This document shows, one piece after another, positions 28,057 through 55,718 of a stretch of DNA of 64,000 nt. The stretch's first letter is position 1, and the number at the start of each line of letters is the position of its first letter. Made by a program: the position numbers and the translations under genes. The notes beneath the pieces were generated by a model. It was not told the origin of the DNA, made no database searches, and was given only the letters and a program-made list of their open reading frames with translations. This DNA comes from an uncultured bacterium (GTDB lineage Bacteria > Eisenbacteria > RBG-16-71-46): contig CAZPVG010000005.1 of NCBI GenBank assembly GCA_964589945.1, positions 15,011-79,010 on the forward strand, written 5' to 3'.

Positions 28057-28072
28057 CGCGGCGCCGGGCGCG

Positions 28073-28110
28073 GCGAAGGGCCCGCGGCGCGTGCGCCGCG
28101 GGCCCTTCGC
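28073..28110. terminator. Perfect 18-bp inverted repeat between convergent genes (bidirectional terminator candidate)
   Basis: GCGAAGGGCCCGCGGCGC-GT-GCGCCGCGGGCCCTTCGC. Confidence 0.65.
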
Positions 28111-28129
28111 GTTCCGGATCGGCCCCGGC

Positions 28130-29482: not shown

Positions 29483-29570
29483 GCCCGCGAGGTTAGCACT
29501 CCGCGGCACCGGCCGCCGCCGACCGGCGACGGGCGACTCCGGCGGGGCGACGGGCGCGGCCCGCCGGCCG

Positions 29571-29984: not shown

Positions 29985-30163
29985 GTTCTCCTCGTGTGTG
30001 CGATGAGCGGGGAGGGGCCGCCGCCGGAATGTACGCCACGCGGGCCCGGAATGCCCGCGGCGGGGAGAACGGGGGCGGAGGGGCGGGACGGCTTGACGCT
30101 TCCGGAGTGCTGGCCGACCCTGCCTCCGTCGCGGCCGCGCCGCAAGCGGGGAGAGACGAGCCC

Positions 30164-30625: not shown

Positions 30626-30765
30626 GCGGCCCGCGGTTCCCCGCCCGCGGGGCGGCCCCCCGCGACCGTCCGCACCCTCAAGTCGGGGACCGGGCGGGCC
30701 GAAGCCTGTGCGGTACGACGCACCCGACCCCCGGGCGCGCCTCCTCCGGACACAGGGGAATTCGC

Positions 30766-31197
30766 ATGAACCTCCGTACGAGCCTCCGGCCGGCCCGGGT
30801 GGCCCTGGCCGCGGCCGTGGCGCTGGCCTGCGCGGCCGCTCCGGCCATGGCCGGCGCCCCCGCAGCGACCCCGCGGCCCGTCGCCATCCTCGCGCCGCTC
30901 GCCCCGGTTCCCGCCCCGATCGTCTGCGGCCTGGTGGCCTTCCTCGATCCCGACACGGGGCGGCTCACCGGCCCCATCGCATCGTTCGTACCACCGGTGG
31001 ACCAACGCGACGCGGCCGACCCGGTGCTGCTGGTCGAGGAGCCCCTGCCCGGCGGCGGCTGGGTGATCGACCTCAAGGGCACGCTGATGGAGTCGTACGT
31101 GATGCATCTCGATCCGCTCGGCCACGCGACGGTCGAGTGCGTGCAGGACCACCGGGTCGCGCCGGTCGTGACCGCCGTCGCCGGAAGGGGGCGCTGA
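30766..31197 (+). CDS. Small secreted hypothetical protein (DPxTGxL motif)
   Basis: Signal peptide; GLVAFLDPDTGRL...LPGGGWVIDLKG...VECV; stop lies 1 nt before the next ATG. Confidence 0.65.
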   Translation: MNLRTSLRPARVALAAAVALACAAAPAMAGAPAATPRPVAILAPLAPVPAPIVCGLVAFLDPDTGRLTGPIASFVPPVDQRDAADPVLLVEEPLPGGGWVIDLKGTLMESYVMHLDPLGHATVECVQDHRVAPVVTAVAGRGR

Positions 31198-31198
31198 C

Positions 31199-32752: not shown

Positions 32753-32772
32753 TCGCGGGCCGGGAACGCGGA

Positions 32773-32804
32773 CGGGGCGGCGGGCCGACCGGCCCGCCGC
32801 CCCG
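32773..32804. terminator. 14-bp GC hairpin between convergent genes
   Basis: CGGGGCGGCGGGCC-GACC-GGCCCGCCGCCCCG. Confidence 0.6.
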
Positions 32805-32824
32805 CTTCGTCTGGCGCCGCCGGA

Positions 32825-34660
32825 TCAGGCGCCCTTGCGCCTCTTCTCGATGCGGGCCCACGCGTCCTTGAGGGTCACGGTGCGGTTGAATACCGGCCTC
32901 CCGGGGAGCGAGTCGGGGTCGGGGTAGAAGTACCCGACGCGCTCGAACTGCAGCGGCGTGCCCGCCGGCGCCTCGGCGAGCGCGGGCTCGAGCCGGCAGC
33001 CGGTCAGGACCTCGAGGGATCGCGGGTTGATCCCGCTGACGAAGTCCTCGCCCTCGGGCACGTCCTCGGGATCCACCTGCGGGAAGAGCGTCTCGTAGAG
33101 GCGCACCTCCGCCGGCACCGCGTGGGACGCCGACACCCAGTGGATCGTGGCCTTGACCTTGCGGCCGTCCGGCGCGTTGCCGCTGCGGGTCTCGGGATCG
33201 TACGTGGCGCGGACGAGCGTGACCTCGCCGGTCGCGGGGTCCTTCTCGACCCCGGTGCAGCGGACGAGGTAGGCGGCGCGCAGCCGCACCTCGGTGCCGG
33301 GGGAGAGGCGGAAGTACTTCGGCGGCGGGACCTCGCGGAAATCCTCCTGGTCGATCCAGACCTCGCGCGCGAACGGGACCTTCCGCACGCCCGCGGCCGG
33401 GTCCTCGGGGTTGTTCGCGGCCTCGAACCACTCGACCTGCCCCTCGGGGTAGTTCTCGAGCACGACCTTGAGCGGTCTCAGGACGGCCATGCGGCGGAGC
33501 GCGCGACGGTTCAGCTCCTCGCGCACGCAGTGCTCGAGCAGGGCCAGCTCGACGCGGTTCTCGCGCCGGGCGACGCCGACGCGGTCCACGAAGTCGCGGA
33601 GCGCGACCGCGGGGTAGCCGCGGCGCCGCATGGCCGAGATCGTCGGCATGCGCGGGTCGTCCCAGCCGCGCACGATGCCCTCGCGCACGAGCCGCAGGAG
33701 CTTGCGCTTGCTCATCACCGTGTGCGTCACGTTGAGCCGCGCGAACTCGTACTGGTGCGGCAGCGGGCGCGGCAGGTCCAGTGCCTCGAGCAGCCAGTCG
33801 TAGAGCGGGCGGTGCGGCACGAACTCGAGCGTGCAGATGCTGTGCGTGACGCCTTCGATGTAGTCGGACAGCCCGTGGGCGTAGTCGTACATCGGGTACA
33901 GGCACCACGCGTCGCCGGTCTGGTGGTGCGAGGCGTGACGGATCCGGTAGAGGATCGGGTCGCGCAGCCAGACGTTCGGCGACGCCATGTCGATCCTCGC
34001 GCGCAGCGTCCGGGCCCCGTCCGGGAACTCGCCGGCGCGCATGCGCGCGAGCAGGTCGAGGCTCTCCTCCACCGGCCGGTTACGCCATCGGCTGGGCACG
34101 CCGACCTCGCCCGGAGCGCCGCGCATCGCGTCCACCTCGGCGGGGGTGTGGTCGCAGACGTAGGCGCGCCCCTTCCCGACGAGGCGGACCGCGAACGCGT
34201 ACAGGGCCTCGAAGTAGTCCGAGGCGTAGAAGGGTTCCAGCGCCTCACCGCGGTGTTCCGCCGGCATCACGGGCGCCTGGTAGTAGTCCTCGCTCCCGGC
34301 GGCGCCGCGCGCCGGCGGCTTCGCGCCGGCCGGCTTGAGCCCGAGCCGGTCGTCCGCCCAGCCGGCCAGCAGCCAGCGGACGTCGGACAGGATCGACTCG
34401 ACGTATTCCACCTCCTCCTTGGCGGGGTTCGTGTCGTCCATGCGCAGGTTGCACTGTCCGCCGAACTGCCGGGCGATGCCGAAGTTGAGGCAGATCGCCT
34501 TCGCGTGGCCGATGTGGAGGTACCCGTTCGGCTCGGGCGGGAAGCGCGTCACGATCTTCGCGTGCGCGCCGCGCGCGAGATCGGCCTTCACGATCTCGCG
34601 GATGAAGTCCTCCCGCTCCTCGGCGGGCGTATCCGGTTCGCGGGTGGTCGGGTCACTCAT
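32825..34660 (-). CDS. glnS: Glutamine--tRNA ligase
   Basis: [42 protein letters not shown]. Confidence 0.96.
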
Positions 34661-41646: not shown

Positions 41647-44478
41647 TCAGGGCTTCGCGTCGGGCTCGCGCGGCTGGACGAACTGCCAGCCGAAACGCCC
41701 CTTCACGCACAGGTTGCCCTGCGTGATGTCGTTCTCGAAGGGCGACGTCGCCTTGACGATCCGGCCGTCCTGCTCGTGCAGCCGGAGCGTGCACCCGACC
41801 CCGCAGTACGGGCAGATCGTGTCCGTGGCCGTCTGGCGATCGGGTCGCCAGTCACCGGCTGCGCGCAGGTCGTGCTCGGACTTCGCGACGAGCGCCCCCG
41901 TCGGGCAGACCGCGATGCAGTTGCCGCAGTAGACGCACGCGGAATCCGGCAGCCCGACGTTCAGCTCGGTCGAGATGCGCGCCCCGAAGCCGCGCCCCGC
42001 CACGGCGATGGCGAACGTGTTCTGGTGGTCCTCACCGCAGGCCTCGACACACTTGTAGCAGAGCACGCACTTCGCGTAGTCGCGCACGTAGAGGTCGTTG
42101 TCGACCTTGACGGGCTGCGACACCGTCGCGGCCGCGCCGTCGGCGGGCGCCTCGTGGTGCCCGGCGATCTCGTGGTCCCGGTCCGTGGGTGGGGCCGGGG
42201 GACCGAAGCGGGAGGGGGCGCAGCCGTATTCCCGCTGGAGCGCCTGGAGTTCCGGCGCGGCGGAGAGGTCCACGGAGGAGCCGAGCAGTTCGAGCACGAG
42301 GCGGCGCGAGTGGCGCACGCGCGGCGAGTCGGTGTGAACGACCATGCGCGGCTCGGCCGCCCGCGAGCAGCTCGGGGCGAGCGCCCGGGCGCCCTCGATC
42401 TCGACGACGCACAGCCGGCACGCGTTGGCCGGCGTGAGGGTCGAGAGATGGCAGAGCGTCGGGATCCCGATGCCGCGACCCCGGCACGCCTCGAGCAGCG
42501 TCGTGCCCCTCGGCACTTCGACCGAGTGGCCGTCGATCGTGAGGCGGACGAGGCCCTCGCGCGGCGGGGACACGGGCTCGGGCTCGGAGCGCGCGGGGGC
42601 CGGGGGCGCCCAGGCGGGCGACGCGCCGAAGACCGCGAACTTCCGCAACGCGGACTCCACCGCCGACGAAGCGGTCTGCCCGAGGCCGCAGATCGAGGCG
42701 TCGCGCATGTGCGCGCCGACCTCCTGGATCAGGACCAGCTCGTCCCGGGCGGAGCCCTTCGGGTTGCCGCCGGCGAGCCGGCGGAGCGCCTCCTCCTGGC
42801 GGACCGTCCCGACACGGCACGGCACGCACTGGCCGCACGACTCGTCCCGGAAGAACGCCGCGAGCCGCAGCACGATCTGGCGCAGGTCCACCGAGTCGTC
42901 GAACGCCATCACGACGCCCGAGCCGAGCGTCGTGCCGGCGGCGCGCGCGGCCTCGAGCGTGAGCGGCAGGTCCAGCTCGTCCGGGCGCAGGAAGGTGCCT
43001 GCGGCCCCGCCGAGCAGCACGGCCTGCAGCTCGCGCCCCTCGGGGACGCCGCCGGCCATCTCGATCAGGTCGCCGAGCGACGTGCCGAGGGGCGCCTCGT
43101 AGACCCCCGCGTGCCGGACGCTGCCGCTGAGGCAGAAGAGCCGCGTGCCGGTCGAGTCGCCGCTGCCCGTGGCGGCGAACGCGGCGCCGCCCTCGAGCAC
43201 GATCTGCGGCACGTTCGCAAGCGTCTCGACGTTGTTCACGACGGTCGGCTGCCCGAACAGGCCCTGCTCGACCGGGAAGGGCGGCTTGCTTCGCGGCTCG
43301 CCCCGGCGGCCCTCGATGGACTCGAAGAGCGCGGTCTCCTCGCCGCAGATGTAGGCGCCGGATCCGCGCCGCACCTCGATGTCGAACGAGAAGTCCGTTC
43401 CGAGAATGCGCTCGCCGAGCAGCCCGGCCGCGCGGGCCTGCGCGAGCGCGTGGGACATGCGCTGGAAGGCGAACGGGTATTCCGCCCGCACGTAGAGCCA
43501 GCCGCGCGAACAGCCGGCCGCGAAGGCGGCGATCGTCATGGACTCCACGACGGCGAACGGATCCGCGCAGAGGAGCACGCTGTCCTTGAACGTCCCCGGC
43601 TCGGACTCGTCGGCGTTGCACACGAGGTGCCTCACGCCGGGCGGCTGGTCGCGGACCGCGCTCCACTTGCGGGCCGCGGGGAAGGCGGCGCCGCCGCGCC
43701 CGCTCAGCCTCGAAACCTCGACTTCGCGGATGACCGCCTCCGGCCCCATCTCGATCGCGCGCGCGAGGGCCGCGTAACCGCCCGAAGCGCGATAGGCCTC
43801 GAGGCTCTCGGGGTCCACGCGTCCGACGCGCCGGAGCAGGACGAGCGACGGATCGCCGCCCTGGGGTACGTCGGGGTGCGTCTCGCCGTCCGGCGGCGGC
43901 GTCGTGCCGGCAAGCATCGTGCGGATCGTGTGGACCGTCGCATGCCCCATCAGCGCCTCGACGGGGTCTTGCCCGGCCTCGGTGTACAGGGCCACGGGGC
44001 CGGCGTCGCAGAGTCCGAGGCACGGGGAACGGGACCATCCCGCGGCGGCCGTGCCGTCGCCGTGGGGCAGCGGGGGCCCGGCCTCGCGTTCGAGCCGCTC
44101 GCAGAGGCCGCCGGCGCCGCGCGCGCGGCACCCCACGTCGTCGCAGACGTGGATCACGCGCTTCGGCCGCGGCGAGGTGGCGAGCATGGCGTAGAAGGTC
44201 GCGACGGACCACGCCTCGGCGGGCGGGACGCCCAGCCGCTCGCAGACGTAGTTGAGCCCGCCCGGAGTCACCCATCCGGACCGCGACTGGAGCGCCTGCA
44301 GCGCCGGCAGGAGCAGCGTGCGTCGCTCGCGCTGGGCGCGGCCGCCGTGGGCGACGCGCAGGTCGCGCGGCGTGCGCGAGGACGCGCCGTCCCAGCTCGA
44401 GGACGGCGGTCCGAGCGCGGCGTCCACGGCCTCGCGCTCTTCGGTGGTCGGCTCGGCGTCCAGCAGGCGGATGTCCAT
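41647..44478 (-). CDS. NAD-linked FDH electron-transfer subunit: NuoE+NuoF fusion, [2Fe-2S], 2x[4Fe-4S], and the molybdopterin-enzyme N-terminal [4Fe-4S] domain
   Basis: CDDVGC/CLGLC; GRGGAAFP, CNADESEPGTFKD, YICGEET, ESCGQCVPCR; PTLC..ACRLC..SC; CVLCYKCVEAC, CVYCGNCIAVCP; TICPYCGVGC..NLCVKGRFG. ATG overlaps the upstream TGA. Confidence 0.9.
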   Translation of the reverse strand: MDIRLLDAEPTTEEREAVDAALGPPSSSWDGASSRTPRDLRVAHGGRAQRERRTLLLPALQALQSRSGWVTPGGLNYVCERLGVPPAEAWSVATFYAMLATSPRPKRVIHVCDDVGCRARGAGGLCERLEREAGPPLPHGDGTAAAGWSRSPCLGLCDAGPVALYTEAGQDPVEALMGHATVHTIRTMLAGTTPPPDGETHPDVPQGGDPSLVLLRRVGRVDPESLEAYRASGGYAALARAIEMGPEAVIREVEVSRLSGRGGAAFPAARKWSAVRDQPPGVRHLVCNADESEPGTFKDSVLLCADPFAVVESMTIAAFAAGCSRGWLYVRAEYPFAFQRMSHALAQARAAGLLGERILGTDFSFDIEVRRGSGAYICGEETALFESIEGRRGEPRSKPPFPVEQGLFGQPTVVNNVETLANVPQIVLEGGAAFAATGSGDSTGTRLFCLSGSVRHAGVYEAPLGTSLGDLIEMAGGVPEGRELQAVLLGGAAGTFLRPDELDLPLTLEAARAAGTTLGSGVVMAFDDSVDLRQIVLRLAAFFRDESCGQCVPCRVGTVRQEEALRRLAGGNPKGSARDELVLIQEVGAHMRDASICGLGQTASSAVESALRKFAVFGASPAWAPPAPARSEPEPVSPPREGLVRLTIDGHSVEVPRGTTLLEACRGRGIGIPTLCHLSTLTPANACRLCVVEIEGARALAPSCSRAAEPRMVVHTDSPRVRHSRRLVLELLGSSVDLSAAPELQALQREYGCAPSRFGPPAPPTDRDHEIAGHHEAPADGAAATVSQPVKVDNDLYVRDYAKCVLCYKCVEACGEDHQNTFAIAVAGRGFGARISTELNVGLPDSACVYCGNCIAVCPTGALVAKSEHDLRAAGDWRPDRQTATDTICPYCGVGCTLRLHEQDGRIVKATSPFENDITQGNLCVKGRFGWQFVQPREPDAKP

Positions 44479-46412
44479 CAGGCTTTCCTCGTGGCCTCCG
44501 CCGCCGCGAGTGCTTCGACCCGGACGGCGCTGGCCTTGAACTCGGCCGTCCCCGAGCGGGGATCGGCGGCATCGATCGTGAGTCGGTTGGTCGCGACCTG
44601 GTCGGGGAAATGGAGCGTCATGAACACGAGGCCGGGACGAAGGCCCGACTCGAGCCGGACCGGCGCCGTCACGCTGCCCCGGCGGGAGGTCACGCGCACG
44701 GTGTCGCCGTCCGCGACGCCGAGCCGCGCGGCGTCCTCGGGCGAGATCTCGAGCGCCTCGCCGAGATGGAGGGGGGAGAGGTACCCGCCGGACTGGACGC
44801 CCGTGTTGTAGGACTCGAGCCGGCGGCCCGTGGTGAGCAGGAAGGGATACTCGGCGTCCGGTTTCTCGACCGGTCCCTCCCAGTCGACGACCGAAAACGG
44901 CGCGTGCCGGCCCTGCACGGGATCGGCCCAGAGGCGCCCGTGCAGGAACGGCGTGCCGGGATGGTTCTCGTCCGGGCACGGCCACTGGATGCCGCCGAGG
45001 GCCTCGAGCCGCGCGTAGCTCATGCCGCCGGCGAACGCGGGCGCCACCCGGCGCAGCTCGTTCCACACCTCCTCGGCGCCCGGGCTTCCGAAGTCGGTTC
45101 CCAGGCGCCGGGCGATCTCGGCCACGATCCACAGCTCGTCCCGAGCGCCCCCGGGCGGCTCGACCGCCTTGCGGACCCTCTGGATACGTCGCTCGCTGTT
45201 CGTGACCGTGCCTTCGCTCTCGCACCAGCTCGCGGTCGCCGGCAGCACGACGTGGGCCAGCTCCGCCGTCCGGGTGAGGAAGATCTCCTGGACGACGAGG
45301 TGGTCGAGCCCGCCGAGCAGCTTCTCGACGTGGTGCGCGTCGGCATCCGACTGCGCGGGGTTCTCGCCGATCACGTAGAGGGACGTCATCTCGCCGCGCT
45401 CCATGGCGCGGAGCATCTCGGTCAGGTTCCAGCCGTAGCGCGGCTGGATCCGCGCTCCCCAGGCGCTCTCGAAACGCCCCCGGACCTCGTCGTCGAGGAT
45501 GTCCTGGAAGCCCGGAAGGCGGTTGGGCAGCGCGCCCATGTCGCCGCCGCCCTGGACGTTGTTCTGCCCGCGGAGCGGATTGCAGCCCGAGCCCCAGCGC
45601 CCGACGTGGCCGGTGAGCAGGCTGAGGTTGATGAGCGCCAGCACGTTCTCGGTCGCGTCGTGGTGCTCGGTGATGCCGAGGGTCCAGCAGATCATGGCCC
45701 TGTCGGCCTTCGCGTAGGCGTGCGCCGTCTCGCGGATGGCCTCCGCCGGGACCCCGGTCGCCTGCTCGGCGAACTCGAGCGTGTAGCGCTCCACGTGGTC
45801 GCGGTACGCCTCGAATCCCGTGGTGGCGGTCTCGATGAACCGCCGGTGCTCGAGGCCGGCGTGGAGGATCTCGCGCCCCATCGCGTTCGCGAGCGCGATG
45901 TCGCTGCCCACGTCGAGCCCGAGCCAGACGTCGGCCCAGCGGGCGGAGGAAGTCCGCCGGGGGTCGATCACGTAGAGCCGCGTGCCCCGGTGGATGCCCT
46001 TGAGGAGGTGATGGAACCAGATGGGGTGCGCTTCACGCGCGTTGGAACCCCAGAGCAGCACGACGTCCGTCTCCTCCACCTCGCGGTAGGAGTTCGTGCC
46101 GCCCCCCGCACCGAAGACCGTCGCCAGACCGACGACGCTGGGCGCGTGTCAGGTCCGGTTGCAGCTGTCGATGTTGTTCGTCCCGAACGCGACCCGGGCC
46201 AGCTTCTGGGCCAGGAAGTTCATCTCGTTCGTGGACTTCGAACAGCTGAAGATGCCGAGCGAGTCCGGTCCGCGCGCTTCCCGGTTCCGCCGGAACCCGG
46301 CCGCGGCGCGATCGAGCGCCTCGTCCCAGGACGCCGGCCGCAGGCGACCCTCCTCGCGGACGAGGGGTTGGGTGAGGCGAGCGTACGGCTTGAACTCGTG
46401 ACGGCTGGTCAT
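44478..46412 (-). CDS. Selenocysteine formate dehydrogenase catalytic (Mo/W-bisPGD) subunit; in-frame UGA at 46151-46149
   Basis: ORFs 46149..46412 and 44478..46079 share one frame: NNIDSCNRT-UGA-HAPSVVGL..FGAGGGTNS; PLRGQNNVQG; SECIS-like hairpin downstream of the UGA. Confidence 0.92.
46119..46137 (-). promoter_or_regulatory. Bacterial SECIS element
   Basis: mRNA UGA CAC GCG CCC AG CGUCGUC-GGUCU-GGCGACG: 7-bp stem starting 11 nt after the UGA with a GGUCU apex, as in the E. coli fdhF SECIS. Confidence 0.8.
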
Positions 46413-46915
46413 CGGGAGCCTCCCTGGTCGTTCGGGGCCGATCGCTGCGGAGACGGCAGGATGGACGAGTCACGGCGCCCCGCGCAAGTGCGCGCGGGGC
46501 GCAGCGTTGCGAACCTGCGCTCAGGCCTGGCGGAAGAGCGGGCCCGCGGGGGACGTCCCGAAACGGTCCCGCTCGCCGGGCGACCGGCCGGCGGGCGGAA
46601 TCCCGCGGCCGGCAACCGCATGGGCCTGCCGTTCGTGGCGGTCCGCGTGTCACGCTGGCAGGTCCGGGATCCCCCGACGTTGAACGGTGTTTCAAGAAAC
46701 GGTCAGCCGAAACCGCCAACCGGCCGTCCCGCAGCGAGCGGGCCCGCGGGGTCTCCCGGGTCGCGGGATTGGCCTGCCCGATGCACGACTGGCCCTCAAC
46801 GCATCGCACCCGTGCGAGTGTGCGTTCCGGCGTCGGCCCGCCGTGGAAGAGGCCGGGCGGCGGATCCGTCCGAACGGCTCGCGAAGGGGACGCTCGATGC
46901 GGGGGAGAATCCCTC

Positions 46916-48292
46916 ATGCCCGCGCCGAGGAGACTCCGCACCCTGATCCTGGGTGCCGCCGGCCGCGACTTCCACGACTTCAACGTCTGGTGGAAGCGTC
47001 AGAAGGACGTCGAAGTCGTCGCGTTCACCGCTACGCAGATTCCCGACATCGCCGGTCGCGTCTACCCGCCCGAGCTCGCCGGGCCGGCGTACCCCAACGG
47101 CATCCCGATCCACTCCGAGGACGAGCTCGAGACGCTCGTTCGCGACCTCGCCGTGGACCAGGTCGCCTTCGCCTACTCCGACGTCTCGTACGACACCGTC
47201 ATGCACCTTGCGGCCCGCGCCCAGGCGGCGGGCGCCGAGTTCACCCTGCTCGGCCCGCGGCAGACGATGCTGCACAGCGCCCGGCCCGTGATCGCCGTGG
47301 GCGCCGTGCGCACCGGCTGCGGCAAGAGCCAGACCTCCCGGCGCGTGGCCCGCATCCTGCGCGAGCTCGGCCTGAAGGTGGCGGTGATGCGCCACCCGAT
47401 GCCCTACGGGGACCTGCGCCGCCAGGCGTGCCAGCGTTTCGCGACCCTGGCGGACATGGACGAACACCGGTGCACGATCGAGGAGCGCGAGGAGTACGAG
47501 CCGCACGTCGTCGCAGGGAGCCTCGTCTTCGCCGGCGTGGACTACGAAGCCATCCTGGCCGCCGCCGAGGCGGAGGCCGACGTCATCCTGTGGGACGGGG
47601 GCAACAACGACCTGCCGTTCGTGCGGCCGGACCTCGACATCGTCGTCGTGGACCCGCACCGTGCGGGACACGAGACGCGCTACTACCCGGGCGAGACGAA
47701 CCTGCGCATGGCGGACCTCGTCGTGGTGAACAAGGTCGGCACCGCGGATTCCGCCGCGGTGGAGCAGGTCGAGGCGAACGTGCGGCGCGTGAACCCGCGC
47801 GCGACGGTCGTACGGGCGGCGTCGCCCGTGACCGTCCGGGAGCCGGCGCTCGTGAAGGGAAAGCGCGTGCTCGTGGTCGAGGACGGGCCGACGGTGACGC
47901 ACGGCGAGATGCCCTACGGTGCGGGCTACGTCGCCGCGAAGCAGCTCGGGGCCGCCGAGGTGGTGGATCCGCGCCCGTGGGCCCAGGGCTCGCTGAAGGG
48001 CGTGTTCGAGAAATACGGACACCTCTCCGAGGTGCTGCCGGCGATGGGGTACGGCGACCGCCAGGTCGAGGAGCTGCGGGCGACGATCGCGGCCGTGCCG
48101 TGCGACACGGTGGTGATCGCCACGCCGATCGATCTCGGGCGCATCGTGAAGATCGAGAAGCCCGCGACACGTGCCCTGTACGAGCTGGACGAGCAGGATC
48201 CCGAAGTCCTGCCGAAGGCGATCCGCGAGACGCTCGACCGCCACGCCCGCGCCCAGGAGGCCACGAAGGAGGACCGCCATGCCCACCGCTGA
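46916..48292 (+). CDS. cDPGS-like P-loop NTPase (COG2403), probable arginine synthetase ArcE
   Basis: LILGAAGRDFHDFN, VAFTATQIP, AVRTGCGKSQTSR, RHPMPYG, EEREEYE, WDGGNND, LPAMGY; in an operon with rocD and argF. Confidence 0.78.
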   Translation: MPAPRRLRTLILGAAGRDFHDFNVWWKRQKDVEVVAFTATQIPDIAGRVYPPELAGPAYPNGIPIHSEDELETLVRDLAVDQVAFAYSDVSYDTVMHLAARAQAAGAEFTLLGPRQTMLHSARPVIAVGAVRTGCGKSQTSRRVARILRELGLKVAVMRHPMPYGDLRRQACQRFATLADMDEHRCTIEEREEYEPHVVAGSLVFAGVDYEAILAAAEAEADVILWDGGNNDLPFVRPDLDIVVVDPHRAGHETRYYPGETNLRMADLVVVNKVGTADSAAVEQVEANVRRVNPRATVVRAASPVTVREPALVKGKRVLVVEDGPTVTHGEMPYGAGYVAAKQLGAAEVVDPRPWAQGSLKGVFEKYGHLSEVLPAMGYGDRQVEELRATIAAVPCDTVVIATPIDLGRIVKIEKPATRALYELDEQDPEVLPKAIRETLDRHARAQEATKEDRHAHR

Positions 48293-49517
48293 CCCGGCGC
48301 GCGCCGGGGCCGCGACCGGGAGCGAGACCGAGCGACACATCGCGCTGGCGGACCGTTTCAGCGCGCGCAACTACGCGCCGCTGGAGGTCGTGCTGTCGCA
48401 CGGACACGGTGCCTGGGTGGAGGATGTCGAGGGGCACCGCTACCTCGACATGCTGAGCGCCTACTCGGCGCTCAACTTCGGCCACGGGCATCCGGAGCTG
48501 CTGGCGGCCTTCGCGAAGCAGGCGGAGCGGCTGACGCTGACCTCGCGGGCGTTCCACAACGACCAGTTCGGCCCGTTCTGCGAGGCGATCACGTCGCTCA
48601 CCGGGCTGGACCTCGTCCTGCCCATGAACACGGGGGCGGAGGCGGTGGAAACCGCGCTCAAGGCGGCCCGCAAGTGGGGGTACGAGGTGAAGGGCGTGCC
48701 CGAGGGACGGGCGGAGATCCTCGTCTGCGAGGGCAACTTCCACGGGCGCACGATCAGCATCGTGAGCTTCTCGGACGACGCCCAGTACCGCGAGGGCTTC
48801 GGGCCCTTCACGCCCGGGTTCCGGCTCGTGCCCTACGGCGACCTCGAGGCGCTCGAGAAGGCGATCGGTCCCGACACGGTCGGATTCCTCGTCGAGCCCA
48901 TCCAGGGCGAGGGCGGCATCGTCGTCCCGCCCGCGGGCTACCTCGCGGGTGCGTACGACCTCTGCCGGCGAAATCAGGTCCTGTTCATGGCGGACGAGAT
49001 CCAGACCGGCCTCGGGCGAACGGGAAGGGTGCTCGCGTGCGAGCACGAAGGCGTCCGGCCGGACGTGCTCATGCTGGGCAAGGCGCTCGGCGGCGGGCTG
49101 CTGCCCGTGTCCGCCGTCCTCGCGAGCCGTGAAGTGCTGGGCGTGTTCCGCCCGGGCGACCACGGCAGCACGTTCGGGGGCAACCCGCTCGCGTGCGCCG
49201 TGGCGCGCGCGGCGATCCACGTGTTGCAGCGGGACCGGCTCGCGGAGCGCGCCGCCGCTCTCGGCGAACGCTTCACCGCGATGCTCCGCCGCCACACGAT
49301 GCCCGTGGTGAAGGAGATCCGCGGCAAGGGGCTCCTGATCGGCATCGAGCTGAATCCGGACGCCGGACCGGCGAAGGCCTTCGCGAAGAAGCTCAAGGGC
49401 GAGGGACTGCTGTGCAAGGACACCGTCGAGAGCGTGCTGCGCCTGGCGCCGCCGCTCGTCGTCGAACCGAACGACCTGGAGTGGGCCAGCGAGCGCATCG
49501 CGCGCGTGCTGGGCTGA
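48279..49517 (+). CDS. rocD: Ornithine aminotransferase
   Basis: LSAYSALNFGH, LTLTSRAF, PMNTGAEAVETA, EPIQGEGG, DEIQTGLGRTG, LGKALGGG, HGSTFGGNP. Confidence 0.93.
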   Translation: MPTADPARAGAATGSETERHIALADRFSARNYAPLEVVLSHGHGAWVEDVEGHRYLDMLSAYSALNFGHGHPELLAAFAKQAERLTLTSRAFHNDQFGPFCEAITSLTGLDLVLPMNTGAEAVETALKAARKWGYEVKGVPEGRAEILVCEGNFHGRTISIVSFSDDAQYREGFGPFTPGFRLVPYGDLEALEKAIGPDTVGFLVEPIQGEGGIVVPPAGYLAGAYDLCRRNQVLFMADEIQTGLGRTGRVLACEHEGVRPDVLMLGKALGGGLLPVSAVLASREVLGVFRPGDHGSTFGGNPLACAVARAAIHVLQRDRLAERAAALGERFTAMLRRHTMPVVKEIRGKGLLIGIELNPDAGPAKAFAKKLKGEGLLCKDTVESVLRLAPPLVVEPNDLEWASERIARVLG

Positions 49518-49581
49518 TCGCGACCCGCGCCCCCCGCGCCGAGCGGGGACACCGGGCCGGGGGCCCGGACGGGGAGGGGAC

Positions 49582-50535
49582 ATGACGACGGAACTGAAGC
49601 CCGGGTCGCGCACGGGGCTTCGTCACTACACGTCCGTGAAGGACCTCACGGCCGAGGAAACGATCGCGGTGCTCGAGCTGGCCGAGTCCCTCAAGCGCGA
49701 CCGGGCGGAGGGACGCGCCCACCCGCGGCTCGCGGGCAGGACGCTGGCCATGATCTTCCAGAAGCCGTCGCTGCGTACGCGGGTCTCGTTCGAGACCGGG
49801 ATGACCCATCTGGGCGGGCACGCGATCTACCTCGGCCCGGACGACATCCGGCTCGGGGAGCGCGAGACCACCGAGGACATCGCGGTCGTGCTCTCGCGCA
49901 TGGCGGACCTCGTGATGGCGCGTGTCTTTGCCCACGTGATCGTCGAGGAGCTGGCGCGCTTCTCGGCGGTCCCGGTGATCAACGGACTTTCGGACCACGA
50001 GCACCCCTGCCAGGTCCTCGGAGACCTGCTCACCATCCGCGAGCGGCGCCGGCGCCTGAAGGGGTTGCGCGCGGTGTTCGTCGGCGACGGCAACAACGTG
50101 GCGAACTCGCTGCTCTACGGGGCCGCGCTCACGGGCATGCACTGCACGGTGGCGGGGCCCGAGGAGTTCGCGCCGTCGGGCGAGGTGCTGGAGGAGGCCC
50201 GCCGGCTCGCCCGGGGCACCGGCTCGGAGATCTCGGCCACGACCGACCTCGCGGCCGCCGTGAAGGGTGCGGACGTCGTCTACACGGACGTCTGGACGAG
50301 CATGGGTCAGGAGGCCGAGGCGCGTCGCCGGCGGTCCGCCTTCAAGCCGTACCAGGTGAACGCGGAGGTGATGAACCTCGCCTCGAAGAGCGCGGTGCTG
50401 CTCCACTGCCTGCCCGCCCACTATGGCGAGGAGATCGACTACGCCACGTCGCGGGGCCCCGGGTCGGCGATCTTCGACCAGGCCGAGAACCGGCTGCACG
50501 CCCAGAAGGCGCTCATGGTGACGCTGGCCGGCTGA
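49582..50535 (+). CDS. argF: Ornithine carbamoyltransferase
   Basis: KPSLRTRVSF, HPCQ, DVWTSMG, HCLP, QAENRLH. Confidence 0.92.
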   Translation: MTTELKPGSRTGLRHYTSVKDLTAEETIAVLELAESLKRDRAEGRAHPRLAGRTLAMIFQKPSLRTRVSFETGMTHLGGHAIYLGPDDIRLGERETTEDIAVVLSRMADLVMARVFAHVIVEELARFSAVPVINGLSDHEHPCQVLGDLLTIRERRRRLKGLRAVFVGDGNNVANSLLYGAALTGMHCTVAGPEEFAPSGEVLEEARRLARGTGSEISATTDLAAAVKGADVVYTDVWTSMGQEAEARRRRSAFKPYQVNAEVMNLASKSAVLLHCLPAHYGEEIDYATSRGPGSAIFDQAENRLHAQKALMVTLAG

Positions 50536-50555
50536 CGCCCGGGAAGGCGGGAGGA

Positions 50556-50584
50556 GGGCGGCGGCTCCCCGGGGGCCGCCGCCC
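50556..50584 (+). terminator. GC hairpin after argF
   Basis: GGGCGGCGGCTCC-CCG-GGGGCCGCCGCCC; weak U-tract. Confidence 0.45.
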
Positions 50585-50661
50585 GCGCTTGTGGCGGAAC
50601 CGCGTGGCTCGCTACATTGCCGCATTCCGTCCTCCCGTCGTGCGTCCCGGAAGCCTTCCGC

Positions 50662-51858
50662 ATGTCCGCCTTCACCCAGGAGTGGTTGAACGTCCTGCTG
50701 CGCGGCGCCCACGTGGTCGCCGCCATCCTGTGGATCGGAGACTCCTTCCTGTTCATGTGGATGGACGCCGCGCTCGAACGCCCGCGCGGCGGCCGCGCGC
50801 CCGAGGTGACGGGCGAGATGTGGATGACCCACTCGGGGGGCTTCTACGAGGTCGTGAAGCACCGGACGCTCGCGAAGCTCCCGGACCGGCTTCACTGGTT
50901 CATGTGGCAGAGCTACTCGACGTGGATCACCGGCGTTCTCCTGCTCACGGTCGTCTACGCGTTCGGCAGCCGCGCGATGATCCTCGACGCGACGTCCACG
51001 CTGCCGCACGGGGTGGCGGTGGCCCTGCTCTACGCGGCGCTCGCCGCGGGGCTGCTCGTCTACGAGGGGCTCTGCCGCATACCGGGGCTGCGGGGGTGGC
51101 CGTTCGCCGCGGCGGGCCTGGGGCTGGCCGCCGCGGAGGCGTGGGGCCTGGGGCGGGTGCTCGCGCCGCACGCTGCGCTCCTCCTCACGGGCGCGACGAT
51201 GGGCACGATCATGACCGCGAACGTCTTCTTCGTGATCATCCCGGGGCAGGGGAGGATGCTCGCGGCGACGCGCGAGGGCCGGCCGGCGGACACCGGCGAC
51301 GGCGTGCGCGCCAAGCTCCGCTCCACGCACAACCACTACCTCACGTTCCCGGTGCTGCTCGCGATGCTGTCGGGGCATTTCCCTTCGCTCTGGTCGGGCC
51401 CGCACCCGTGGATCGTCGCCGGGCTGGTCTTCGCCTTCGGGGCGGGCCTCAAGCACGTCATGAACCTCGGGCGGCGCACGCCGTGGCCCGTGGCCGTCGG
51501 CACCCTCGCGTGCCTGGCGGGCGCCGTGGGCATGACGCTGCCACCGGGTCCGGGGGCCGCGACGCTCGCGCTCGCCTCGCACGCGCCCGTCACGGACGAC
51601 GCCGCCCGCGCGATCGTCCTGGCGCGCTGTACGACCTGCCACTCGCCGCACCCGTCGAACGAGGCCTTCACGGCTCCGCCGGCGGGCGTCACCCTCGACG
51701 ATCTCGAGCACATGCGGGCCTACGCCGACCGGATCGTCTACCGGGTGGTCGAGACGCGCACGATGCCGCTCGGCAACCTGACCGGGATCACGGACGAGGA
51801 GCGGCGAACGCTGGGGGCCTGGGCGTGGCAGCAGCGCCACCCCGGGGGCCGGCGGTGA
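50662..51858 (+). CDS. puuD: Membrane urate hydroxylase with C-terminal cytochrome c (PuuD)
   Basis: HVVAAILWIG, WMTHSGGFY, LHWF.W.SY.TW, GTIMTANVF, RSTHNHYLTFPV, CTTCH...MPLGN. Confidence 0.88.
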   Translation: MSAFTQEWLNVLLRGAHVVAAILWIGDSFLFMWMDAALERPRGGRAPEVTGEMWMTHSGGFYEVVKHRTLAKLPDRLHWFMWQSYSTWITGVLLLTVVYAFGSRAMILDATSTLPHGVAVALLYAALAAGLLVYEGLCRIPGLRGWPFAAAGLGLAAAEAWGLGRVLAPHAALLLTGATMGTIMTANVFFVIIPGQGRMLAATREGRPADTGDGVRAKLRSTHNHYLTFPVLLAMLSGHFPSLWSGPHPWIVAGLVFAFGAGLKHVMNLGRRTPWPVAVGTLACLAGAVGMTLPPGPGAATLALASHAPVTDDAARAIVLARCTTCHSPHPSNEAFTAPPAGVTLDDLEHMRAYADRIVYRVVETRTMPLGNLTGITDEERRTLGAWAWQQRHPGGRR

Positions 51859-53243
51859 TCCGCTCCGACCTCGTCGTGCGCGGCCGCCGCGTGGTGCGCG
51901 CGGGGTCCGTCGGGCCGGCGGCGGTTCACGCCCGCGACGGTCGCATCGTGGCCGTCACGCCGTGGAACGAAGTCCCTTCGGGGGTCGCGGTGGTGGACGC
52001 CGGAGAGCGGTTCCTCACGGCCGGCTTCGTGGATGCGCACGTGCACGTGAACGAACCGGGTCGCACGGATTGGGAGGGCTACGCGAGCGCCACCGCTGCC
52101 GCGGCCGCCGGAGGCGTCACGACGATCGTGGACATGCCGCTCAACGGCCGGCCCCCGCTCACGGAACCGGGGGCCGGACGGGCGCGGGTTCGCGCCCTCG
52201 CGGGCGTCGCGCGCGTGGACGTCGCGCTCTGGGGCGGAGTCGTCTCCGCCGACCCATCGGCGCTTCCCGGCCTGGCGGCGTTCGGGGTGGCGGGCGTGAA
52301 GTGCTTTCTCTGCCCGTCGGGGGTGGAGGAGTTCCCGCACGTGGACGAGCCGGCGCTCGATGCCGCGCTGCCCGTGCTGCGCGCGCTCGGCTTGCCGCTG
52401 CTCGCGCACGCCGAGTCGCCGGCCGTGCTCGGACGCGCGGAGCAGGCGCTGCCCGCAGGCGCCGATCCCCGCGCGTATGCGACCTGGCTGGCCTCGCGGC
52501 CGGCGGCGGCGGAGGCCGAAGCCGTGGAGACGCTCGTGCGGCTCTGCCGTCGGCATCGCGCGCACGTCCACGTCGTGCACGTCTCGGGCCGCGAGACGCT
52601 CGCGCTCGTGGCCGCGGCGAAGGCCGAGGGGCTGCCGGTCACGGCGGAGACCTGCCCTCACTACCTCGCCTTCGCCGCGGAAGAGATCGCGGACGGCGCG
52701 ACCGCGTTCAAGTGCGCCCCGCCGCTGCGCGAGCGCGCGCACCGGGAGGCGCTGCGGTCGGCGCTCGACGACGGCACGCTCGACCTCGTCGCGAGCGACC
52801 ACTCGCCGTGCCCGCCCGCGATGAAGGACCTCGCGGGAGGCGACTTCCGGAAGGCCTGGGGCGGGATCGCCGGACTCCAGCTGCTGCTGCCCGCGACGCT
52901 GACCTTCGCGCGTCCTCCTGCGGCCGAGCCCTGTGATGTCGCCCGCTGGCTGGCGGAGGCCCCGGCCCGCCTCGCGGGGCTGGCGGGGCGGAAGGGGACG
53001 CTCGCGCCCGGGTGCGACGCCGATTTCGCGATCTGGTCGGAGGAGGGCCGGACGGTCTCGGCGGGAGGGCTGTTCCATCGCCATCCCGTCACGCCCTGGG
53101 CCGGCCGGCGGCTCGCGGGCACGATCCACCAGACGTGGCTGCGGGGCCGGCTCGTCTATGATGCGGAGCGCGGATTCCCCGACCACCCGCACGGGAGGTT
53201 CCTGGCCGTCTCGCGACGGCCGGCGGAGCCCGCGCCGAACTGA
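51855..53243 (+). CDS. allB: Allantoinase
   Basis: DAHVHVNEPGRTDWEG, DMPLN, HAE, ETCPHYL, FKCAPP, SDHSP, AWGGI. Confidence 0.9.
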   Translation: MIRSDLVVRGRRVVRAGSVGPAAVHARDGRIVAVTPWNEVPSGVAVVDAGERFLTAGFVDAHVHVNEPGRTDWEGYASATAAAAAGGVTTIVDMPLNGRPPLTEPGAGRARVRALAGVARVDVALWGGVVSADPSALPGLAAFGVAGVKCFLCPSGVEEFPHVDEPALDAALPVLRALGLPLLAHAESPAVLGRAEQALPAGADPRAYATWLASRPAAAEAEAVETLVRLCRRHRAHVHVVHVSGRETLALVAAAKAEGLPVTAETCPHYLAFAAEEIADGATAFKCAPPLRERAHREALRSALDDGTLDLVASDHSPCPPAMKDLAGGDFRKAWGGIAGLQLLLPATLTFARPPAAEPCDVARWLAEAPARLAGLAGRKGTLAPGCDADFAIWSEEGRTVSAGGLFHRHPVTPWAGRRLAGTIHQTWLRGRLVYDAERGFPDHPHGRFLAVSRRPAEPAPN

Positions 53244-53254
53244 AGGAGCGCCGA

Positions 53255-54835
53255 GTGTCCCAGCCGTACGCCGTCCCCGAGCCCTTCGCCCGGCTCACGG
53301 AGCTCTCGCTCGACACGACGGGCACGTTCGTGCTCGCCGTGAGCGACGACTACTTCGCGCCCGCGGAAGCGCTGCTGCGCCCACACGCGCCCGAGTGGCG
53401 GGAGGGTGCCTACACGGCGCGCGGCAAGTGGATGGACGGCTGGGAGTCGGCCCGGCGCCGGGCGCCGGGACACGACTGGGTGCTCGTTCGCCTCGGCACC
53501 CCCGGCCGGATCGAGGGCGCCGTCGTGGACACGACCCACTTCAAGGGCAACGCGCCGCAGGAGGTTTCGCTCGAGGCGATCGAGGCCCCGCTCGCCACGA
53601 CGGCCGCGGACCTTCTCGCGATGCCGATCGAGGCTACGAGCGGGGAGCACCGCGCCTCCGGGGGCCACGCGTGGGTCGAGATCGCCCCGCGCGCCGCCGT
53701 GCGGCCGGACGCGGTGAACCTCGTCACCCCTTCAGGGTCACCCGAGCGCGCGAGCCACGTTCGCCTGCGGATCCACCCGGACGGGGGCGTCGCCCGGCTG
53801 CGCCTGTTCGGGCACGTCCGTCCCGATCCGGACGTCTTCCGCGGGCCCGGCTCGATCGACCTCGCGGCGATCGAGCACGGTGGGACGATCGCCCTCGCGA
53901 GCGACTCCTTCTTCGGGCCGCCCTCGAACCTCCTGTTGCCCGGTCGGGGGGTGAACATGGGCGACGGATGGGAGACGAAGCGCCGCCGGACGCCCGGCTC
54001 CGACTGGTGCGTCGTGCGGCTCGGCCGCCGTGGGGTGGTCCAGGCACTCGACCTCGACACCCACTTCTTCAAGGGCAACGCCCCGGTCTCGACGCTGGTC
54101 GAGTCGCTCGACGACCAGGAGGCGACGCCGAAGCGCCTGGCCGCCCGCGAGGGGTGGAACATCCTCGTCGAGCGCACGGCGGTCGGGCCCCACCGCCGGC
54201 ACCGGCTCGTGCCCGCGTTCGCGAGGGTGGCGACACACCTGCGCGTCCACATCGTCCCGCACGGCGGCGTCAACCGGCTGCGGGTCCACGGGGAGGCGCT
54301 CGACACGCCCGCGGAGTCGCGGGCGCTCGTCCGCCTCGGGTCGCTGAAGGGGGCCGCGCGCGACGAGGTGCTGCGGTCGTTCTGCGCGTCGCGGGCGTTC
54401 GCCGAATCGCTCGGCGCGAGGTTGCCGGTCGCGAGCACGCGCGAGCTGGTCGCGGCGGCGACCGCGGTGATCGAGGGACTCGACGAGGCGTCGCTGCTCG
54501 AGGCCCTCGCGGCGCATCCCCGCCTGGGCACGCCACCGCCGCCCGCCGACGCCTCCGCCCACGCGGCGTGGTCCCGGCGGGAGCAGGCGGCGCTCGAGTC
54601 CGGCGCGGCGGGGGACGTCGAACGGCTGCGAGCCGGTGACGAGGCCTACGAAAAGCGCTTCGGGTTCGGCTTCGTGGCCTTCGCATCGGGGCGCGACGCC
54701 GCGGAGCTCGCCGACCTCGTCGAGGAGAGGCTCGCGAACGAACGGCCGGCCGAGATGGCGGCGGCCGCCCGCGAGCAGGCGCGGATCACGCGGCTTCGCA
54801 TCGGCCGCTGGCTCGAGGCCGAAGGCGCGGCCTGA
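53255..54835 (+). CDS. alc: Allantoicase fused to a C-terminal OHCU decarboxylase
   Basis: Two allantoicase repeats (MDGWES.RRR, DT.HFKGNAP, PDGGVARLR; MGDGWETKRRR), then AHPRLG, SRREQ, YEKRFGFGF, EQARI. Confidence 0.88.
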   Translation: MSQPYAVPEPFARLTELSLDTTGTFVLAVSDDYFAPAEALLRPHAPEWREGAYTARGKWMDGWESARRRAPGHDWVLVRLGTPGRIEGAVVDTTHFKGNAPQEVSLEAIEAPLATTAADLLAMPIEATSGEHRASGGHAWVEIAPRAAVRPDAVNLVTPSGSPERASHVRLRIHPDGGVARLRLFGHVRPDPDVFRGPGSIDLAAIEHGGTIALASDSFFGPPSNLLLPGRGVNMGDGWETKRRRTPGSDWCVVRLGRRGVVQALDLDTHFFKGNAPVSTLVESLDDQEATPKRLAAREGWNILVERTAVGPHRRHRLVPAFARVATHLRVHIVPHGGVNRLRVHGEALDTPAESRALVRLGSLKGAARDEVLRSFCASRAFAESLGARLPVASTRELVAAATAVIEGLDEASLLEALAAHPRLGTPPPPADASAHAAWSRREQAALESGAAGDVERLRAGDEAYEKRFGFGFVAFASGRDAAELADLVEERLANERPAEMAAAAREQARITRLRIGRWLEAEGAA

Positions 54836-54858
54836 GGACGGCAACGGGAGGGACCTTC

Positions 54859-55197
54859 GTGGGAATCAGCACGCACATCCTCGACACCGCGCTCGGGCGC
54901 CCGGCCGAGGGCGTCGCGGTCACGCTCGAGGCCCGTCGCGACGGCGAGTGGGTCGCCGTCGGCAACGCCGAGAGCGACGCCGACGGGCGGGTCCGCTCGC
55001 TCGTGCCTGCGGGAAGGGAGATCGCCGCGGGAATGCACCGGCTCCGCTTCGACGCCAGCGGCTACTTCGCGCGCTCGGGGCGGGAGACGTTCTACCCGTT
55101 CGTCGAGATCGCCTTCGTGGTGCGAGATCCCGAGGAGCATCACCACGTGCCCCTGCTGCTCGCCCCGTACGGCTTCTCGACCTACCGCGGCTCGTGA
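54859..55197 (+). CDS. uraH: 5-hydroxyisourate hydrolase
   Basis: STHILDT..GRPA, DGR, HHVPLLL, C-terminal YRGS. Confidence 0.95.
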   Translation: MGISTHILDTALGRPAEGVAVTLEARRDGEWVAVGNAESDADGRVRSLVPAGREIAAGMHRLRFDASGYFARSGRETFYPFVEIAFVVRDPEEHHHVPLLLAPYGFSTYRGS

Positions 55198-55718
55198 GCG
55201 CGCCCCCGGTCCGGACGCTGACCGCGAGGCCGCTCGCGCCGGAGGCGTTCGCGCCGTTCGGCCAGGTGCTGGGCGGGCGCGCGGAACCGGGCCGGCGCGT
55301 GAACCTGGGGTCGGCCACCCGTCACGACCGCGCCGCCTCGCTGGAGAGCGACCGGCCGGAGGCGCTCCCGAACGTCGCGATCTTCCGCTGCGACCCGCGG
55401 ACGCTTCCGTTCCGGGGCACGCTGCTCGAGCGCCACCCCCACTCGACCCAGCTGTTCGCTTCCCTGCGCGGCGGGCGGTGGCTGCTGGTGGTCGCCCCGG
55501 CGCTCGCCGACGGGGCCCCCGACGAGGCCCGTGCGGTTGCGTTCGCCTGCGGGCCCGGCGAGGCCGTGAACATCGCCCGGGGCTGCTGGCACCACCCGGT
55601 GATCGCGCTCGGGGAGCCTGCCGAGCTGCTGATGCTCTCGTGGGAGGACGGGGGGGCCGGCGATTGCGAAAAGCGGCCGCTCGAGCGGCCGTTCGACGTC
55701 GTCGCTCCGATGGCATGA
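55194..55718 (+). CDS. allA: Ureidoglycolate lyase
   Basis: AFAPFGQV, LERHPHSTQ, WHHP; GTGA coupling. Confidence 0.85.
   Translation: MSAPPVRTLTARPLAPEAFAPFGQVLGGRAEPGRRVNLGSATRHDRAASLESDRPEALPNVAIFRCDPRTLPFRGTLLERHPHSTQLFASLRGGRWLLVVAPALADGAPDEARAVAFACGPGEAVNIARGCWHHPVIALGEPAELLMLSWEDGGAGDCEKRPLERPFDVVAPMA

Follow-up and report, generated by a model that had tools for sequence, protein, structure and literature searches.

How might a bacterium use an ATP-forming arginine deiminase, and what could switch such an enzyme on? The question is raised by a cluster of three genes, arcE, rocD and argF, in a stretch of 64,000 nucleotides (nt; here called the window) from an uncultured bacterium (GTDB lineage Bacteria; Eisenbacteria; RBG-16-71-46; assembly GCA_964589945.1, contig CAZPVG010000005.1, positions 15,011 to 79,010 of the forward strand). 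Its first gene resembles that of ArcE, the arginine synthetase TK2200 of Thermococcus kodakarensis, which was shown to convert arginine, ADP and Pi into citrulline, NH3 and ATP (PMC11032458). The wide spread of arcE among bacteria has already been published (PMC11032458, 2024), the same paper states that the role of ArcE outside T. kodakarensis was unevaluated, and HESD (PMC13763154) gives one curated protein for the ArcE reaction, which is archaeal. Our analysis points to arcE-rocD-argF as an arginine synthetase operon that likely works in the direction of breakdown and that a predicted sigma-54 promoter would turn on at low oxygen; taken as a whole, we consider this reading moderately probable. 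The enzyme, its pathway and its bacterial spread are known, and what is new is the arcE-rocD-argF order with a sigma-54 promoter and a palindromic enhancer. Because the enzyme and the pathway are known and homologs are common (at least 7999), the gain lies in context and regulation, not in chemistry. The upstream promoter and enhancer, overlooked by a preliminary description of this DNA, are the least known part of the locus. The three genes are as follows:

46916-48292, plus strand: arcE (P0001), ortholog of arginine synthetase (ATP-forming arginine deiminase), 458 amino acids; assigned by orthology, tree and family columns
48279-49517, plus strand: rocD (P0002), ornithine aminotransferase, 412 amino acids; over the cut-off of TIGR01885
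49582-50535, plus strand: argF/arcB (P0003), second ornithine carbamoyltransferase (OTCase), 317 amino acids, likely the catabolic copy; over the cut-off of TIGR00658

Identity of the Genes

The preliminary description had seen a P-loop gene, ArcE-like and related to cyclic 2,3-diphosphoglycerate synthetase (cDPGS), that overlaps an ornithine aminotransferase gene and precedes an OTCase with the SMG ornithine loop, and the three plus-strand reading frames bear this out. The genes arcE and rocD overlap by 14 nt, 64 nt separate rocD from argF, and GC3 (G+C at third codon positions) is 0.94-0.95 in all three. P0002 scores 520 bits against TIGR01885 (cut-off 378), a better match than to the ArgD models, and stays below the cut-off of NF003145 (570 vs 656). 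P0003 passes the OTCase models TIGR00658 and NF001986, carries the motifs DVWTSMG and HCLP, and fails the models of putrescine carbamoyltransferase (315 vs 500) and of the acetylornithine type. P0001 has a Walker A loop, RTGCGKS, at residues 132-138; it passed no NCBIfam family, and in Pfam a short CobW stretch alone was over the cut-off.

The reference for ArcE was a reading frame of a Thermococcus sp. (L040) with both primer-defined termini of TK2200. The pattern of the TK2200 reverse cloning primer led to five Thermococcales loci, and that of the forward primer had no match in the genome collection; the L040 frame starts with the forward-primer peptide and holds the reverse-primer peptide at its end. 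Over 426 amino acids, P0001 aligns with this ortholog without a gap at 62% identity (576 bits, E 4e-187). ArcE is the top match of P0001 in 5/5 Thermococcales genomes (in one of them in pieces), and P0001 is the sole match back in the source genome. In PMC11032458, a protein counts as ArcE at a BLASTP E < 1e-100 to TK2200 and a length > 380 amino acids (legend of Fig. S10), and P0001 lies within both limits with the Thermococcus ortholog as reference. Additionally, it keeps 91 of the 91 near-invariant columns of the family (defined by conservation in 90% or more of 72 homologs, which were gathered with P0001 as the query).

Many homologs of P0001 are named cDPGS in databases, and cDPGS is its best match in the PDB by both sequence (the sole matches, E 2e-6 to 7e-6) and fold. 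The structure model (pLDDT, a per-residue confidence score, of 95) has cDPGS and LpxK as its nearest solved folds, the same two that are reported for TK2200 (PMC11032458), and neither the sequence search nor the fold search found a solved ArcE structure. However, the fold match to cDPGS is distant (TM-score 0.45, root-mean-square deviation 15.5), and P0001 is 22-26% identical to true cDPGS as against 59-62% to ArcE. The true cDPGS of the same Thermococcales genomes, which matches PDB cDPGS at E 2e-206, scores E 5e-6 or worse against P0001. Furthermore, the alignment shows that P0001 lacks the P-loop Lys-Arg pair that binds 2,3-DPG in cDPGS (PMC10690619). The gene for 2-phosphoglycerate kinase adjoins cDPGS in 3/3 Thermococcales loci, and one Thermococcales query for this kinase had no match in the source genome.

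The reciprocal searches and the phylogeny, proposed as checks by the preliminary description, agree in placing P0001 with ArcE and not with cDPGS. In a quick IQ-TREE tree, it stands on the Thermococcus ArcE side, about 10 substitutions per site from cDPGS (SH-aLRT 100); this tree has 50 rows, of which three are cDPGS, all from Thermococcales, and one is over-extended (G018), and it left out 109 of the 119 homologs of one listing and all 150 of another. With cDPGS in a separate clade, the tree refutes the cDPGS identity, to which we attach virtually no probability. Thus, P0001 is almost certainly an ortholog of ArcE, an assignment borne out by the reciprocal best match, the tree and the absent kinase match, and by orthology it likely catalyzes the ArcE reaction.

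Named homologs of P0001 at 71-74% identity come from Ca. Eisenbacteria. Plasmid-borne arcE was seen in three haloarchaeal records only. Some ArcE homologs are longer, at 651-806 amino acids, with extra N-terminal regions that may be fusions (P0129, P0133, P0140, P0271).

Direction of the Pathway

The source genome (4.49 Mb, 71% G+C, 90.6% complete) encodes a full set of arginine genes outside the window. An operon argR-argC-argB-argD-argG-argH-argF lies on contig C72, with argH fused to an N-acetyltransferase domain (L001:5072-7090) that likely supplies the ArgA step, and carB, over its cut-off, is on C2. The OTCase of this biosynthetic operon is 49% identical to P0003, which is itself likely a catabolic OTCase, judging by its status as a second copy that travels with arcE. 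The preliminary description had remarked that no carbamate kinase is present in the window: none is seen in the neighbourhood of the cluster, and the single copy that the family search detected in the genome lies on contig C37, ahead of ygeW-like, ygeY-like and Se-xanthine dehydrogenase genes (28051-34403, L002). A RocA-type pyrroline-5-carboxylate (P5C) dehydrogenase, over its cut-off, and an arginase are also encoded. No match was found for arcA in the source genome or its order, nor for proB and proC in the source genome. ArcE, OTCase and carbamate kinase are therefore encoded together where ArcA was not found, in a genome that is 90.6% complete.

The direction had been left open by the preliminary description, which also considered an arginine synthesis independent of ArgG and ArgH. 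Since argG, argH, a second, biosynthetic argF, carB and the carbamate kinase all lie elsewhere in the genome, the direction is no longer open. With the full arg operon, carB, carbamate kinase and RocA present, and neither arcA nor 2-phosphoglycerate kinase matched, the operon is very likely catabolic; an energy-conserving route of breakdown, as had been proposed, fits the rest of the genome. In PMC11032458 it is argued that ArcE is catabolic where ArgG and ArgH exist.

Run backwards, the operon would lead from the semialdehyde through ornithine and citrulline to arginine. The reversibility of ArcE is documented in vitro and in vivo (PMC11032458), each of the three steps could in principle run either way, and 10 of the 34 arcE-positive genomes among 61 surveyed relatives (genus to class rank) have no argG match, most of these being outside the family. 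However, argG is present in the source genome and in 20/20 arcE-positive genomes of the family, the source genome has a whole ArgR-led operon with its own argF, no proB match was found that could make the semialdehyde, and ammonium has a reported Ks of about 110 mM (PMC11032458). The argG/argH operon and the missing proB match led us to reject this biosynthetic reading, which is very improbable.

Another possibility is that the operon is a supply line that feeds carbamoyl phosphate into pyrimidines or hydrogenase maturation and ornithine into proline. Such a role was demonstrated in T. kodakarensis (PMC13260591; PMC11032458), arcC is absent from the operon, proB was found in just 1/61 of the genomes, and one relative has the order argF-arcC-pyrB-rocD-arcE. 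Here, however, carB is present, so that a supply role of the T. kodakarensis type is not needed; arginase already yields ornithine, arcE-negative kin lack proB as well, and, as proC has no match, the product of RocD has no found route to proline. We consider this explanation improbable. An ornithine cyclodeaminase-family gene (C30, L102), which passes no subfamily cut-off, is a candidate proline source.

In the catabolic reading, ArcE would first convert arginine, ADP and Pi into citrulline, NH3 and ATP; by analogy, the reaction would pass through a phosphorylated ureido species at the P-loop. The OTCase of the operon would then split citrulline with Pi into ornithine and carbamoyl phosphate, and the C37 carbamate kinase would gain a second ATP from the latter. 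RocD would turn ornithine into glutamate semialdehyde and the RocA-type dehydrogenase would oxidize this to glutamate. The equilibrium of OTCase is unfavourable in the citrulline-splitting direction, and the carbamate kinase and RocD/RocA steps would pull it forward. No arginine/ornithine antiporter gene is present in the cluster (the genome was not searched for arcD), and therefore RocD may be the ornithine sink that pulls OTCase. Because RocA would make NADH, the route seems to suit low-oxygen or anaerobic respiration over pure fermentation.

Predicted Promoter and Enhancer Upstream of arcE

The signals read around the operon are the following:

46625-46630, plus strand: CCTGCC half-site about 20 nt 5' of the palindrome, likely a second activator contact; seen in the window and recurring in relatives
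46648-46660, plus strand: palindromic upstream activator-like site, consensus TG[ACT]CA-N3-TG[AG]CA; found in 12/21 arcE loci and the sole match in the 64-kb window
46770-46784, plus strand: sigma-54 (-24/-12) promoter-like site, GG-N10-GC; strict motif in 13/21 loci, rpoN in the genome
46904-46907, plus strand: GGAG, ribosome-binding site 5' of arcE; read off the sequence
50556-50584, plus strand: G+C-rich hairpin of 13 bp without a T-run, 3' of argF; from the fold of the intergenic stretch

Within 250 nt upstream of arcE, a strict sigma-54 motif occurs in 13 of the 21 family-type or operon-type loci (shuffles would yield 0.9), in 0/12 other arcE loci and in 2.9% of genome windows taken as background. 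The palindrome lies 107-129 nt 5' of the promoter in 12/21 loci (122 nt in the window), again in 0/12 of the others, and its background is 0.17% of 450-nt genome windows. The GG-N10-GC site of the window fits the sigma-54 consensus given in PMC6615313, and so do the positions left free in a composite pattern of palindrome and promoter. The sigma factor gene rpoN is present in the source genome, over its cut-off.

The motifs were defined post hoc and were therefore tested on whole genomes. The composite pattern matched in 29 of the 61 genomes, with 78 matches as against 10 for a reversed control, and it was found in 20/20 arcE-positive and 5/17 arcE-negative genomes of the family. A half-site, CTGAC or CTGCC, stands about 20 nt 5' of the palindrome before many of 29 relative sites, outside the search pattern. 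The composite was seen in 0/80 metagenome arcE loci, many of which are short. A scan for ARG-box-like sites 5' of arcE gave scattered and unconserved matches, and a sigma-70 scan gave 0 promoters. Overall, sigma-54 control of the operon is a prediction that we hold to be highly probable.

The hairpin 3' of argF is possibly a transcript end or a stabilising stem; the terminator scan did not call it and found no terminator on the plus strand. A search of 45000-52000 with Rfam gave two sub-threshold matches.

A Candidate Regulator and the Genes That Share the Site

The composite site of arcE ranks second in the source genome, and the first-ranking one stands directly behind a kinase-regulator pair on contig C25 (40021-43415; L110, with orthologs L147-L168). 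This locus encodes a PAS histidine kinase and a sigma-54 response regulator, followed by enhancer, promoter and a receiver-like reading frame, which in loci of this type has 156-166 amino acids and no Pfam match; the arrangement is conserved in 22 genomes. The PAS cysteines of the kinase, C-x5-C-x9-19-C-x2-C, are kept in 22/22 orthologs (one with altered spacing), and 21/22 have the sigma-54 activator beside the kinase. The four-cysteine kinase is present in 20/23 arcE-positive and 2/27 arcE-negative genomes of the order, out of about 31 candidates scored per genome. Its link to the promoters consists of this co-occurrence and of adjacency to the enhancer site (7 of the 31 sampled targets lie behind an activator gene). 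The regulator paired with this kinase is the best candidate for a sigma-54 activator that would bind the palindrome 122 nt 5' of the arcE promoter, and the pair is a candidate master switch of the regulon. NreB is reportedly a redox sensor with conserved PAS cysteines. OrpR of Desulfovibrio is an example of PAS cysteines that can bind an Fe-S cluster for redox sensing in sigma-54 regulation (PMC8359166), and by analogy the kinase may sense oxygen or redox through a predicted Fe-S cluster. The likeness to OrpR and NreB lies in conserved PAS cysteines in redox-dependent transcription control, which OrpR also exerts via sigma-54. OrpR differs in having three cysteines in the activator itself and another DNA motif (PMC8359166), whereas here four are in a separate histidine kinase.

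Thirty loci were fetched, which hold 31 of the 78 composite matches. Behind these 31 sites stand arcE (4), Hsp20 (4), pntA (3, one scanned) and porC (2), and seven have a small receiver-like frame behind an activator gene (three scanned, no Pfam match). One site each precedes groES, ccoN, acetate-CoA ligase, a multiheme cytochrome c, a hemerythrin, a GltD-like flavoprotein, glutamate dehydrogenase, a glycoside hydrolase-like gene, an NHL protein, a receiver protein and a kinase/TPR fragment (the last probably by chance). The cbb3 oxidase, 2-oxoacid:ferredoxin oxidoreductase, hemerythrin and Hsp20 are markers of low oxygen. Moreover, porC is present in 5/5 arcE-positive and 0/5 arcE-negative genomes, which were picked for completeness. 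These conserved upstream signals suggest joint activation of the operon and of other energy genes that are likely used at low oxygen, and a low-oxygen signal seems to us rather probable.

The same catabolic pathway could instead have a sigma-54 switch that answers substrate, nitrogen or general stress, as RocR does at rocDEF of Bacillus subtilis, with arginine used as a carbon and nitrogen source rather than for survival at low oxygen. The RocD-RocA ending under sigma-54 control matches the roc genes (bioRxiv 2023.04.21.537655), the genes 3' of argF in the window are for purine degradation, chaperones make up 5 of the 31 sampled targets, and any of about two dozen sigma-54 activator-like genes in the source genome could be the activator. 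On the other hand, the 31 targets include no nitrogen-assimilation or transport gene apart from one glutamate dehydrogenase, the purine genes adjoin the operon in just 2 of 33 relatives' loci, and rocA and arginase have no site. An answer to substrate, nitrogen or stress is unlikely, though it deserves more weight than the reverse and supply explanations.

Several points weigh against a catabolic operon switched on at low oxygen. TK2200 itself was not retrieved and orthologs stood in for it; the C37 carbamate kinase, at 343 bits, is just below the TIGR00746 cut-off of 358 (and above that of NF009007); and arginase, present in 48/50 genomes of the order, could supply ornithine without ArcE. The surveyed genomes are kin, so that counts are not independent. 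A ygeW-like gene co-occurs equally well with arcE (22/23 vs 3/27 in the order) and is present in 9/9 dedicated arcC loci of relatives, in a purine-type cluster. As for the promoter, 6/21 loci have not even a looser promoter motif, and both motifs were defined after the sequences had been seen. Acetate-CoA ligase, present in 5/5 arcE-positive genomes, is also in 2/5 arcE-negative ones, and the chaperone targets fit general stress equally. In the source genome, the other sites form a mixed set (pntA, a multiheme cytochrome, the regulator's neighbour frame and a secreted protein), and arcC, rocA, porC and acetate-CoA ligase have no composite within 600 nt, so that no single switch covers the entire route. 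The composite enhancer was likewise not found at arginase, argR and fdh of this genome.

Beyond the operon, we tentatively propose, as a possibility that we rate below even, an undescribed low-oxygen regulon in part of one Eisenbacteria family. In it, a four-cysteine PAS kinase would sense oxygen through an Fe-S cluster and a sigma-54 activator would act on TG[ACT]CA-N3-TG[AG]CA. Its targets would be cbb3 oxidase, 2-oxoacid:ferredoxin oxidoreductase, multiheme cytochromes, transhydrogenase, chaperones and the arginine synthetase operon, with two ATP per arginine and ornithine burnt, not exported.

Distribution and Gene Order in Relatives

A carbamate kinase family match is present in 34/34 arcE-positive and 3/27 arcE-negative genomes of the survey, and one of the latter three (G009) has rocD-argF at a contig end. 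Orthologs of rocD are found in 23/34 arcE-positive and 0/27 arcE-negative genomes, and, because arginase occurs in 48/50 genomes of the order, rocD follows arcE and not arginase. The OTCase of the window type (63-83% identity) is present in 20 genomes, 19 of them arcE-positive, and the twentieth is G009. Given that the carbamate kinase gene is embedded in a purine-type cluster, its joint occurrence with arcE could stem from a common lifestyle; purine breakdown may be its primary role, with the arginine route drawing on it as well.

Among the 33 arcE loci of relatives, the order is arcE-rocD-argF in 13, arcE-rocD at a contig end in 1, arcE-argF in 3, rocD-argF-arcE in 2 and argF-arcC-pyrB-rocD-arcE in 1; the remaining 13 have none of these neighbours, and in 10 of them arcE precedes a succinyl-CoA synthetase-like gene (named by eye). 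No gene is shared beside the operon beyond close kin. Among 80 arcE loci from metagenomes (56-65% identity), 17 have arcC nearby, 11 an OTCase gene and 3 rocD. As rocD near metagenome arcE is always accompanied by arcC, the arcC-less arcE-rocD-argF order is a lineage feature.

The one argF-arcC-pyrB-rocD-arcE operon (L074, on contig C6 of genome G045) joins the full pathway to aspartate carbamoyltransferase; its genome has no argG or arginase match, and a similar order occurs in the metagenome loci L221 and L229. Operons of this type suggest a supply of carbamoyl phosphate to pyrimidines in bacteria. In other orders of the class (L073, L076-L078, L080-L085), a lone arcE without a sigma-54 site stands between sugar-nucleotide and succinyl-CoA synthetase-like genes, as named by eye. 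Eight of the 11 class-level genomes have no argG match, and four of those have no carB match either. Three (G053, G054 and G056) have arcE plus an arcA-like gene below the family cut-off, a combination called rare in PMC11032458.

The cluster of arcC, ygeW-like, ygeY-like and Se-xanthine dehydrogenase genes is conserved in relatives (L088-L094, L105-L107), and a TGGTAC-type site lies 5' of arcC in several of them. The ygeW-like and ygeY-like proteins are below their family cut-offs (366 vs 453; 174 vs 321), and their substrates may differ from those in Escherichia coli.

In the window, a purine-degradation cluster lies directly 3' of argF (50617-55718, plus strand), with a gene of the urate oxidase N-terminal family, an amidohydrolase, an allantoicase-OHCU decarboxylase fusion and HIU hydrolase. 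Divergent from arcE is a formate dehydrogenase alpha gene (44478-46412, minus strand) whose codon 88 is an in-frame TGA (CNRT-U-HAPS) that likely encodes selenocysteine; tRNA-Sec is present in the genome. A NuoE/F/G-like partner follows it (41647-45225, minus strand).

Comparison with Known Systems and Meaning

Bacterial arginine deiminase operons, arcDABC, are controlled by an FNR-type regulator. They resemble the present operon in the route from arginine through citrulline to ornithine and carbamoyl phosphate, in substrate-level ATP and in a role in anaerobic growth (cf. PMC11032458). In contrast, the locus described here has ArcE in place of ArcA (two ATP vs one), no arcC or antiporter gene in the operon, ornithine that is likely oxidized by RocD rather than exported, and predicted sigma-54 control.

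The ArcE-ArcB-ArcC pathway of T. kodakarensis (PMC11032458, PMC13260591) is similar in its ArcE ortholog (62%), OTCase, carbamate kinase, passing of ornithine to ornithine aminotransferase and the absence of a found arginine deiminase. Unlike there, arcE, rocD and argF form one operon here, the genome also encodes ArgG/H, carbamoyl phosphate synthetase and arginase, the likely fate of ornithine is glutamate and not proline (no proC match), and a sigma-54 promoter with an enhancer is predicted. The roc regulon of B. subtilis (rocABC/rocDEF, SigL, RocR; bioRxiv 2023.04.21.537655) shares the RocD and RocA-type ending and an enhancer-dependent sigma-54 promoter. It differs in its entry by arginase and RocB, whereas here the entry would be the energy-conserving one by ArcE and OTCase, the enhancer is common to respiratory and chaperone genes, and the candidate activator is two-component, not an ornithine-binding one-component protein. 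Finally, cDPGS (PDB 8ORU, 8ORK, 9SXB; PMC10690619) is a distant homolog with an LpxK-like P-loop core and ATP/ADP plus Pi chemistry, set apart from P0001 by the low identity, separate clade, substrate-binding Lys-Arg and 2-phosphoglycerate kinase partner described above.

In the literature covered, which leaves most subscription journals outside, we found no assay of a bacterial ArcE, no arcE-rocD operon, no regulation of ArcE and no such regulon; Figs. S2B, S10 and S11 of PMC11032458 may draw arcE-rocD clusters.

The sigma-54 promoter and enhancer are well supported, and the low-oxygen role is plausible but unproven. The locus offers a testable case of a bacterial ArcE: the ortholog is full-length, its setting is clearly catabolic, and promoter, enhancer and regulator are predicted. 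Bacterial ArcE is also a candidate for arginine production strains. If the low-oxygen reading is true, ArcE would fill the role of arginine deiminase in anaerobic survival, with twice the ATP yield, in an uncultured phylum. If the low-oxygen regulon is also true, a bacterial ArcE would for the first time be placed in a regulatory and physiological setting, and the family would split into facultative anaerobes and aerobes.

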